Shown here one piece after another: positions 61,801 through 64,000 of a DNA stretch of 64,000 nt. This stretch comes from Escherichia coli (lineage in GTDB: Bacteria > Pseudomonadota > Gammaproteobacteria > Enterobacterales > Enterobacteriaceae). A program made the position numbers. How positions within the stretch are numbered: the stretch's first letter is position 1; each line of letters begins with the position of its first letter. The stretch lies in NCBI RefSeq assembly GCF_045037415.1, contig NZ_CP173440.1. One strand, given 5' to 3'.

Positions 61801-64000
61801 GAAGACAATGTAAGAGATAATACATTGATATAGAATCGAATTTACCATGTAGTTCCTCTGGATAAGATTCAAATACATTATGCTGAACTTCATACCGTAT
61901 TCTGGCTTTCCCTATCCTTGCTGATGCCGTTTTCAAACTAGCCTTATTGAGATCCATAAGTGAGATATTGTAATTTGCAGGAGCTTTGGCAAGATAATAC
62001 CCAGTTCCAACGCCAATATCTAAATGGTTAGGTCTTAAATTTTGTAAAAAATAAGGGAGCAAAATCTCTTTTGTCGGACAATGCCAAGCGTAACTGTTGG
62101 AAATGCTCAGCACCCACCAGTCATAAAGCTTCAAAGTGAATGGTGTGTAGATCTTCGTTCCTTCATCAACATTACTCATTAGTTATACCTTGCAACAGTC
62201 AATGTGGATAAGCAGAGCATATAGCAATATGCTCAATATCTCCTTTCTATTTTATCACGATTTTTTCCACTACTTACCAAGATTTACAACAAACAACATA
62301 TTATTGCAATGCATTGCCATTTTGTTCACATACTTGGCAATTTATAAGTATATTGCATAAATATAAAGTTGACTTTTAGAGTTCTTTTTTGTAGATAAAC
62401 TCTCATGGAAATATGGAAATATGGAAATATGGAAATATGGAAATATGGAAATATGGAAATATGGAAATATGGAAATATGGAAATATGGAAATATGGAAAT
62501 ATGGAAATATGGAAATATGGAAATATGGAAATATGGAAATGAGGTAAGAAACAGAAGACTATAAAATTTGAAGTCAAAAATGGTAACTGAGCTCCTCCTC
62601 GTTTGGGTGCTTAGGAGATATAACTAGTGGAGAATGAAATATAACTATTACTGCAAAATAACCTGTTAAGCCAGCCGGGCCACTTTCGTGGGCCAGGGAT
62701 CGTGGAAAATCCCCCCCTGCTGCCACCAGAGAATTTCCTCTTCAGTGAGTAAACACTGGCGCAATGCGAGGGCAAAATCGTCAATTTCGCCGCTCTCGCC
62801 AATAACAGTCAGGCGGCAGCGCCGGTCACCAAATCTGCCCGGCATTTTTGCCAGTTGCTGACGGATAGCTGCGCGTTCTTCCTTTGTCAATGAATTATCA
62901 GTGTGAGTCAGGACCCCGGCTTTCCAGTAGCTTATGAATTCGAGATTGATGCTCCCTGCTGCCTGGTTCCACAATAATGCCAGGTCATCCCTTCCCGGTA
63001 GCCAGAAAAAACCCTTGCTGCGGTAAACGCCTGCGCCCATGAAGCGATGGCAGGTATCCCACAGCCGCTGCGGATGAAATGGGCGGTCATCCTCAATGAC
63101 CCGCCACGAAATATCATATTTTTTGTCGGGTTCATCCGACAAAACTGCATCAATTGCATCCTGAAGCTCATCGATAAGTAACGCCACCCGATGAAAATCG
63201 TAATCCGGCATGGAAAGCAATTCATCCAGCTGTAAATTTCCCCAGGGCACGGCCATAATTGCAACCTGCGGATTAAGGGGATGTATGGCTCTGGCTACCT
63301 CAGTAACAACATAGAAGGGTAATCTGTCGTTTTTGGTTAACAAGAGCTTATTACAGAACATAATCTGTTCTGCCAGCAGGCTTTCCACTCCCCGGGTCCC
63401 TCTGTTGAGGTGCTCCTGGAAAACCGGAATAAGTTTCTTTCCACCGTCGTAGTCATCATTAAGCATGACCGTATCTACAAGCGACAAAAATGCTTTAAGA
63501 CTTACCTGGGGGTGTTCTCGCAGATAGCGGACCAGGGGAAGAGGATGGCTGCTGCCTGACGTTTCCAGTAAAATAAAATCCGGAGACCGTTTTTCGAGCA
63601 GGTTTTTCAGCGCGGAATCCAGCTTCTGGATCCCACTTCTGCTGCTGATACTGTCTGCTGAAATACTCACAAAATTGTTACTGGCTGCATCAACGATTTC
63701 TGTGTTGGCTATCAGGACGCCATCCACATCAAGTTCACTCATGTCATTAACGATGACGGATACAGCCATTCGCCGTTTGTGTGCCTGTGTAAGAAGGTTT
63801 TTTAGCAGAGTAGTTTTTCCTGCTCCCAGAAAACCATTAAGGATAATGAGCGGTGTTCTTTTCATAGCATCCAGCCTTATGCCGCTAAACGTTAATGCAA
63901 TCAAGTTGCAATAATACCGGCTTCCTGCCAGAATTCAAATGACATGACTCGGAGGGGGAAATATGGCAACACCAGTAGCCAAAACGTATGACTGGAAGCA

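Follow-up and report, generated by a model that had tools for sequence, protein, structure and literature searches.

The tandem array (ATGGAAAT)17 at positions 62405-62540 of the analyzed window (the whole stretch of 64 kb) is a hypervariable VNTR. Most likely, with a probability of about 0.75, it is a young, nearly neutral microsatellite without a function, residing in a decayed locus. Judging by the annotated neighbourhood, the window comes from a virulence (hypervirulence) plasmid of Klebsiella pneumoniae of the pLVPK/KpVP-1 type. The gene order starts with peg-344, rmpC, rmpD, rmpA, a methyltransferase paralogue, and remnants of cas6e and of a helicase gene, and continues with an ABC transporter, the methyltransferase, the array, COG0523, def, and then iucABCD-iutA. 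The array region matches approximately 690 plasmid records at 99-100% identity, nearly all of them from Klebsiella.

The array and its copy-number variation

Tandem Repeats Finder describes the array as having period 8, 17.0 copies, 100% matches, no indels, and a score of 272; on the minus strand it reads (ATTTCCAT)17. The seventeen perfect 8-bp copies of the original prediction are thus confirmed, with the start moved by one base: the true start is 62405, and position 62404, given previously, is the C ending ...ctctc just before ATGG. Since the next-best array in the 64-kb window has at most 3.2 copies according to the same program, chance is ruled out for a 17-copy array. The distances given earlier are correct, with 125 nt (62541-62665) between the array and the stop codon of COG0523 copy 2 on the minus strand, and 225 nt (62180-62404) from the array to the start codon of the methyltransferase (ATG at 62179, minus strand). 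The absence of the array beside the paralogues holds as well, as other copies of the unit in the window are isolated singles (at 317, 5470, 15212 and 20185 on the plus strand, and at 17947 on the minus strand). Nor is there a paralogue of the intergenic segment 62192-62650 anywhere in the window.

Copy numbers were read from spans matched against the query and pooled over 99 distinct related plasmids. They range from 4 to 25 units, with a unimodal distribution (median 12, standard deviation 3.4); in all 99 plasmids the differences in array length are exact multiples of 8, and the flanks are 100% identical. The array of pLVPK itself (strain CG43) has 11 units and that of the hvKp strain SGH10 has 5, and arrays are also found on plasmids of K. 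variicola (6 and 20 units), K. quasipneumoniae (7) and K. aerogenes (14). The five relatives whose sequences were fetched carry perfect arrays of 4, 10, 11, 13 and 25 units between identical flanks. In particular, L003 and L004, ST147 NDM-5 outbreak plasmids belonging to the same series from the UK, show no substitutions over 42 kb, yet have 11 and 10 units, respectively, their remaining differences being only three 1-nt homopolymer indels. Further plasmids with neighbouring CP137xxx accessions have 10-13 units, and five plasmids of equal length (197,415 bp) have 13 units each. The locus is fast-changing but not chaotic.

Slipped-strand mispairing is expected in perfect arrays of short units. 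Hypermutability by slippage, as proposed in the original prediction, is strongly supported here by whole-unit variation with identical flanks and by a one-unit change that was not accompanied by any substitution over 42 kb; copy number, which was to be compared among related plasmids, proved to be variable and not invariant. The locus therefore combines perfect head-to-tail units, whole-unit polymorphism with conserved flanks, and a rate of change outpacing point substitution, as characteristic of VNTRs. An origin of these differences in sequencing or assembly has a negligible probability. Some of the assemblies are nanopore-only (PMC11084618), and errors of that kind may account for the 1-nt homopolymer differences that separate L003 from L004, but length differences in steps of 8 without exception, perfect repeats in every fetched array, the agreement of the five 197,415-bp plasmids, and identical counts for six records sampled in two separate searches all argue against this explanation.

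No array of fewer than four units was observed among the 99 sampled plasmids with the deletions described below, and a search of deletion-type plasmids for one to three units, performed with a synthetic one-unit query, yielded none among the 60 tied top matches listed, which are a sample. The sampled minimum of four units could hint at selection against loss, which would go against the neutral reading; slippage dynamics and shared ancestry would be just as likely to produce it.

Origin of the array and decay of the locus

In a second group of plasmids the same flanks were matched with a span shorter by 128 bp. The plasmid NZ_CP063859.1 (L002) carries the intact metal-homeostasis cluster, in which three ABC transporter genes, zigA and the methyltransferase gene (minus strand, 217 aa) are followed by a 332-nt intergenic region, the gene of a Tat-signal FMN-dependent alpha-hydroxy-acid oxidase (plus strand, 395 aa; Pfam FMN_dh), DoxX and, further on, COG0523 (minus strand) and a Fur-family repressor (Pfam FUR). 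This plasmid contains exactly one ATGGAAAT, located 100 nt upstream of the oxidase ATG in the divergent promoter region shared with the methyltransferase. Wherever the oxidase junction is intact among the plasmids listed (60 of 60), the span is 700-701 bp and one unit is present; these plasmids include Kp52.145 pII (FO834905) and animal, sewage, E. coli, Enterobacter and K. aerogenes plasmids. In L025, a relative that decayed independently, the unit is still single, and therefore decay alone does not make an array.

The window differs from L002 by four changes: a 901-bp deletion in zigA, a deletion of about 235 bp at the 3' end of the methyltransferase gene, the gain of 16 units, and a deletion of approximately 3.0 kb. 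The first of them is internal, at 61146/61147, and what is left is the C-terminal remnant of a zigA-type COG0523 gene (61130-61552, plus strand). The second, of 235-239 bp in the comparison with L002, removed the 3' end of the methyltransferase gene and the region downstream of it, with the junction at 61607-61608. The largest deletion took the oxidase gene, DoxX and about 1.4 kb more; its junction (62640-62651) joins the oxidase start codon to the sequence just downstream of COG0523 copy 2, as seen from the Blast matches of the window to L002 (62533-62640 to 6226-6333, and 62632-64000 to 9335-10703). Of the deleted oxidase gene, the segment 62541-62640 (plus strand) thus retains a remnant of the 5' leader with the ribosome-binding site; homology to L002 stops 2 nt into the ATG. 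COG0523 copy 2, a GTPase gene with CobW and CobW_C domains on the minus strand (annotated at 62666-63865, with the ORF spanning 62666-63904), is intact.

Hence the array would have been born in the leader of an oxidase gene since deleted, inside a decaying locus. By parsimony, one founding duplication probably occurred in the KpVP-1 ancestor, and units would later have been gained and lost as a whole by replication slippage. Relatives of the oxidase among 185,579 species genomes reach at most 68% protein identity, all of them outside Enterobacteriaceae, and because they are so distant, the divergent promoter region cannot be aligned, which rules out phylogenetic footprinting.

The methyltransferase gene next to the array is a remnant as well (61472-62179, minus strand). 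It encodes a class I SAM-dependent methyltransferase in which residues 1-190 are family-like and 45 unrelated codons stand in place of the last 27 family residues, so that the ORF has 235 codons, the usual length in the family being 218-224 aa; full-length family members align only with the first 80% or so of the product. The lost segment is conserved in 18 diverse homologues, where F197 is invariant and G206, V208, A209, F211 and A213 are conserved at 90% or above. In the AF2/AlphaFold model of the intact paralogue (pLDDT 90.6) it forms the end of helix 186-194 and the strands 197-205 and 208-216. Class I methyltransferases have a seven-strand core sheet, to which the two terminal strands belong. 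Since, according to the model, the conserved C-terminal beta-hairpin with two core beta-strands is gone, the product is very unlikely to be functional and probably cannot fold normally. A PDB sequence search intended to locate the C-terminus in known structures matched the SAM-binding core only, and the predicted structure was used in its place.

The 235-codon ORF of the remnant is open in hundreds of plasmids, which counts against the neutral reading. These plasmids are about 99-100% identical, leaving little time for decay, and this weakens the objection.

An apparently intact paralogous cluster is located elsewhere in the window, at approximately 22-33 kb, and apparently provides redundancy for the decayed one. 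Genuine-looking Zur boxes, scoring 19 of 23, are present in the window at 24328, 32391, 36534 and 57541, and none lies in the intergenic region of the array, where the best candidate scores only 15 of 23. The boxes fit the Zur-regulated COG0523 cluster noted on pLVPK by Haas et al. 2009 (PMC2770081). That study deals with the same plasmid family and with the same kind of metal-homeostasis genes as those surrounding the array; its subject, however, is the gene content and the Zur sites, not the repeat. Moreover, the iuc-positive virulence plasmid pF1025-Vir has lost the array, the methyltransferase and the transporter altogether via an ISKpn26-associated deletion, and the region, judged from this loss, is dispensable.

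Predicted regulatory elements and alternative explanations

Two promoter-like sites are placed back to back at 62300-62354, one directed toward the methyltransferase and the other into the array. The former (TGAACA-17-AATAAT with a TG extension; 62300-62328, minus strand) is a consensus match located on the gene side, with 77 bp between it and the array. The latter (TTCACA-18-TATATT; 62325-62354, plus strand), also a consensus match, is assigned to the deleted oxidase operon by its position relative to the oxidase ATG in L002; the array would begin about 45 nt into its transcript. The total number of promoter-like sites in the consensus scan equals the shuffle expectation, so that such sites are weak evidence taken alone. 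The site of the methyltransferase gains support because it overlaps a candidate operator (62299-62320) consisting of TATTATTGCAA and an ATTGC repeat. The exact 11-mer recurs at 63906 and 25612, in the paralogous intergenic regions between COG0523 and Fur-family repressor genes, which suggests an operator. The candidate operator lies 85 bp from the array, the unit of which does not contain the operator motif. The consensus scan revealed no promoter within the array. Predicted terminators are absent both from the stretch that separates COG0523 copy 2 from the methyltransferase remnant and, on the plus strand, from the one leading from the site at 62325-62354 to COG0523.

Changes in array length would carry little or no phenotypic consequence, because the gene of the leader is gone, the methyltransferase probably cannot fold normally, and the predicted promoter and operator are on the gene side. 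A coding role was considered and rejected, as all three reading frames run into stops within a few codons past the array and the copy numbers are spread over the frames without a bias (35, 30 and 34 plasmids, n=99). The ORF across the array is an artefact, as had been suspected, and PGAP calls a 'hypothetical protein' there only when the array is long.

The original prediction suggested a contingency-type switch, and a more general form of it would be a switch or rheostat in which copy number alters methyltransferase transcription, either by moving upstream DNA or via read-through from COG0523 into the methyltransferase. The array is indeed hypermutable and located 225 nt upstream of the methyltransferase ATG, co-transcription through it is possible given the lack of a predicted terminator after COG0523 copy 2, and there are precedents for repeats upstream of promoters or in 5'-UTRs, e.g. 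hmw1A (PMC12721329). Still, such control is unlikely, and the switch as originally proposed is not supported, though a weak effect may occur. Its target has lost the conserved C-terminal beta-hairpin. The array does not appear to be situated between promoter elements, the predicted -35 element being 77 bp away on the gene side; the promoter positions used in this argument are themselves consensus-level predictions. The intact loci have a single unit in every listed case (60 of 60), what follows past the array is a leader whose gene has been deleted and not an evolved activator site, and the region can be dispensed with, as in pF1025-Vir. With each added 8-bp unit the DNA upstream is rotated by roughly three-quarters of a turn, but helical phase has left no pattern in the copy numbers (23, 25, 30 and 21 plasmids per quadrant), and no hairpin like that of hmw is formed. 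Iterated binding sites controlling the methyltransferase, also suggested originally, find no support either, since the unit by its origin belongs to the leader of the oxidase gene, which was encoded on the opposite strand and is deleted here. As for binding sites of a centromere-like or iteron-like kind, boxes with an 8-bp period are known from some type Ib partition sites, where they are tetramers; however, nothing speaks for such sites beyond the regular 8-bp period and the fact that the plasmid is large and of low copy number. No partition or replication genes are adjacent, the neighbours being COG0523, the methyltransferase remnant and the ABC transporter; copy number is unconstrained between 4 and 25; sister plasmids with the same backbone genes do not have the array, and pF1025-Vir is maintained after its deletion; moreover, the candidate operator motif does not occur in the unit. 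This explanation is extremely improbable.

One more role could be played by the repeat at the RNA level, where the orphaned plus-strand promoter would produce an RNA with 4-25 A-U-GGA motifs, titrating a GGA-binding protein (CsrA) or acting as antisense into COG0523 copy 2. The promoter-like site at 62325-62354 is aimed into the array with no predicted plus-strand terminator before COG0523, ANGGA is present in every unit, and in the plus-strand MFE fold the array forms short 4-bp AUAU helices only, leaving the GGAA stretches in internal loops. Nevertheless, such an RNA is highly improbable: the motif match is minimal, the drift in copy number between 4 and 25 gives no hint of constraint, the array is missing from all other plasmid lineages listed and is lost in pF1025-Vir, and Rfam yields no match over 61400-64000 at E-values up to 1. 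Folding of both strands is no better than that of shuffled sequences (z = -1.15 and -0.56), and in the minus-strand RNA fold the array is unpaired. Taken jointly, an influence of array length on read-through or antisense transcription and a GGA-rich RNA acting in trans are still unlikely. Only if the RNA or antisense reading, with its low probability, were true would a new regulatory mechanism be at hand; with the orphaned promoter controlled by a Fur-family repressor, slippage would then affect host regulation or metal homeostasis in a way that is heritable and can be tuned rapidly. The neutral microsatellite remains the preferred reading.

Relation to known repeats and practical value

Contingency repeats of Neisseria, Haemophilus and Moraxella are located between the -35 and -10 elements, beside regulator sites, or in the 5'-UTRs of intact surface or restriction-modification genes, and they are conserved at their loci. 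The Klebsiella array shares with these classical loci the slipped-strand hypermutability of a perfect intergenic array of short units, but it is situated outside the predicted core promoter, beside gene remnants, and is missing from intact loci. The assignment to contingency loci fails, since there is no intact target gene, no functional placement as judged from the predicted promoters, and no array at the intact loci. A particular case is the (ATCTTTC)n repeat of hmw1A and hmw2A in Haemophilus influenzae, which is transcribed ahead of an intact adhesin gene, with expression falling as its length grows, and the RNA of which forms, with a G-rich partner, a long hairpin processed by RNase III (PMC12721329). 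The two repeats are similar in having a unit that is not a multiple of 3, a position upstream of a gene and variation by slippage, and the Klebsiella unit is also a part of a 5' leader by origin. In Klebsiella, however, the leader has lost its gene to a deletion, the gene on the other flank is truncated, and a long hairpin is not predicted.

The closest known thing in kind is STTR10pl, an intergenic VNTR on the virulence plasmid pSLT of Salmonella Typhimurium, used in MLVA typing (PMC6459517). Both are hypervariable intergenic repeats of short units on enterobacterial virulence plasmids, vary between close isolates and have no assigned function. They differ in the unit sequence, the plasmid and the flanking genes, and the Klebsiella array can be traced to one unit in the leader of the oxidase gene since deleted. 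A literature search on the unit sequence, tandem repeats of pLVPK and slipped-strand events on the virulence plasmid retrieved nothing describing or using the array; for the unit, it matched only short strings (primers, for example) in papers on other subjects, the remainder being generic VNTR typing.

The array represents a clean, dated case of the birth of a microsatellite, in which one unit became an array in a locus with no remaining function. Of the sites found in this part of the hypervirulence plasmid, it apparently changes fastest. Outbreak isolates identical elsewhere over 42 kb differ in it, and it could therefore be a cheap marker of high resolution for tracking pLVPK-type plasmids and hybrid resistance-virulence plasmids. 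Arrays of up to 200 bp are not spanned by 150-nt reads, which affects assembly, and long arrays may be annotated with a spurious 'hypothetical protein'.

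Paralogous clusters and predicted operators

Two paralogous clusters of metal-homeostasis genes are present on the plasmid, at about 22000-33000 and 57400-64000 of the window, with a 97.6% match between 62651-64000 and 24357-25706, and a 96.5% match between 61147-61605 and 31119-30661. The cluster at about 22000-33000 appears to be intact; three deletions lie in the other. Matches to the gamma-proteobacterial Zur box precede genes of both COG0523 clusters in the window, being good at 24328-24350, 32391-32413, 36534-36556 and 57541-57563 (at most 19/23), and weaker at 27618 and 60926. 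These predicted boxes are in agreement with the Zur-regulated cluster of pLVPK noted by Haas et al. 2009 (PMC2770081).

Three exact copies of the 11-mer TATTATTGCAA, each with an ATTGC repeat after it, occur in the window: in the methyltransferase/oxidase divergent region, where the array lies (62299-62309, plus strand), and in both divergent regions between COG0523 and the Fur-family repressor (63906-63916 and 25612-25622, minus strand). This motif, which differs from the Zur box, may be the operator for the plasmid's own Fur-family repressor.

Annotation of the array

In RefSeq, a "hypothetical protein" is called across the array once the number of units reaches about 15-17 or more. The call is found in L005, the plasmid NZ_CP094941.1 (positions 3234-3449), and in the records H65, H174, H190, H206, H214 and H215, the number of units in records with such a call being 15 in H206, 16 in H214 and H215, 17 in H65, and up to 25 in H41 and L005. 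The product in L005, WP_226397293.1, has a sequence of the (MEIWKYGN)n type. The array-spanning protein is an annotation artefact, present or absent according to the repeat length.

Homopolymer tracts and neighboring segments

A poly-G tract at the start of the split DUF1173 gene (48178-48186) is G9 in the window, in the relatives L001 and L026, and in the outbreak plasmid L004; in the other ST147 outbreak plasmid, L003, it is G10. Either this is a true slippage site with an effect on the start of the gene, or the difference is a homopolymer error of nanopore sequencing. In rmpA (minus strand, 51253-51843), the reading frame continues through a G10 tract at 51559-51568, presumably the known rmpA poly-G tract, which it resembles.

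The segment comprising rmpA, the methyltransferase, the transporter and the array is absent from pF1025-Vir (L026, NZ_CP130690.1, 7952-9077), where iuc is kept and a copy of ISKpn26 adjoins the end of COG0523 copy 2.

Separately, orphan CRISPR-associated remnants, flanked by IS elements, are observed on the virulence plasmid at 54689-56220, consisting of type I-E Cas6/CasE and a DEAD/DEAH helicase fragment, the latter truncated in some relatives.
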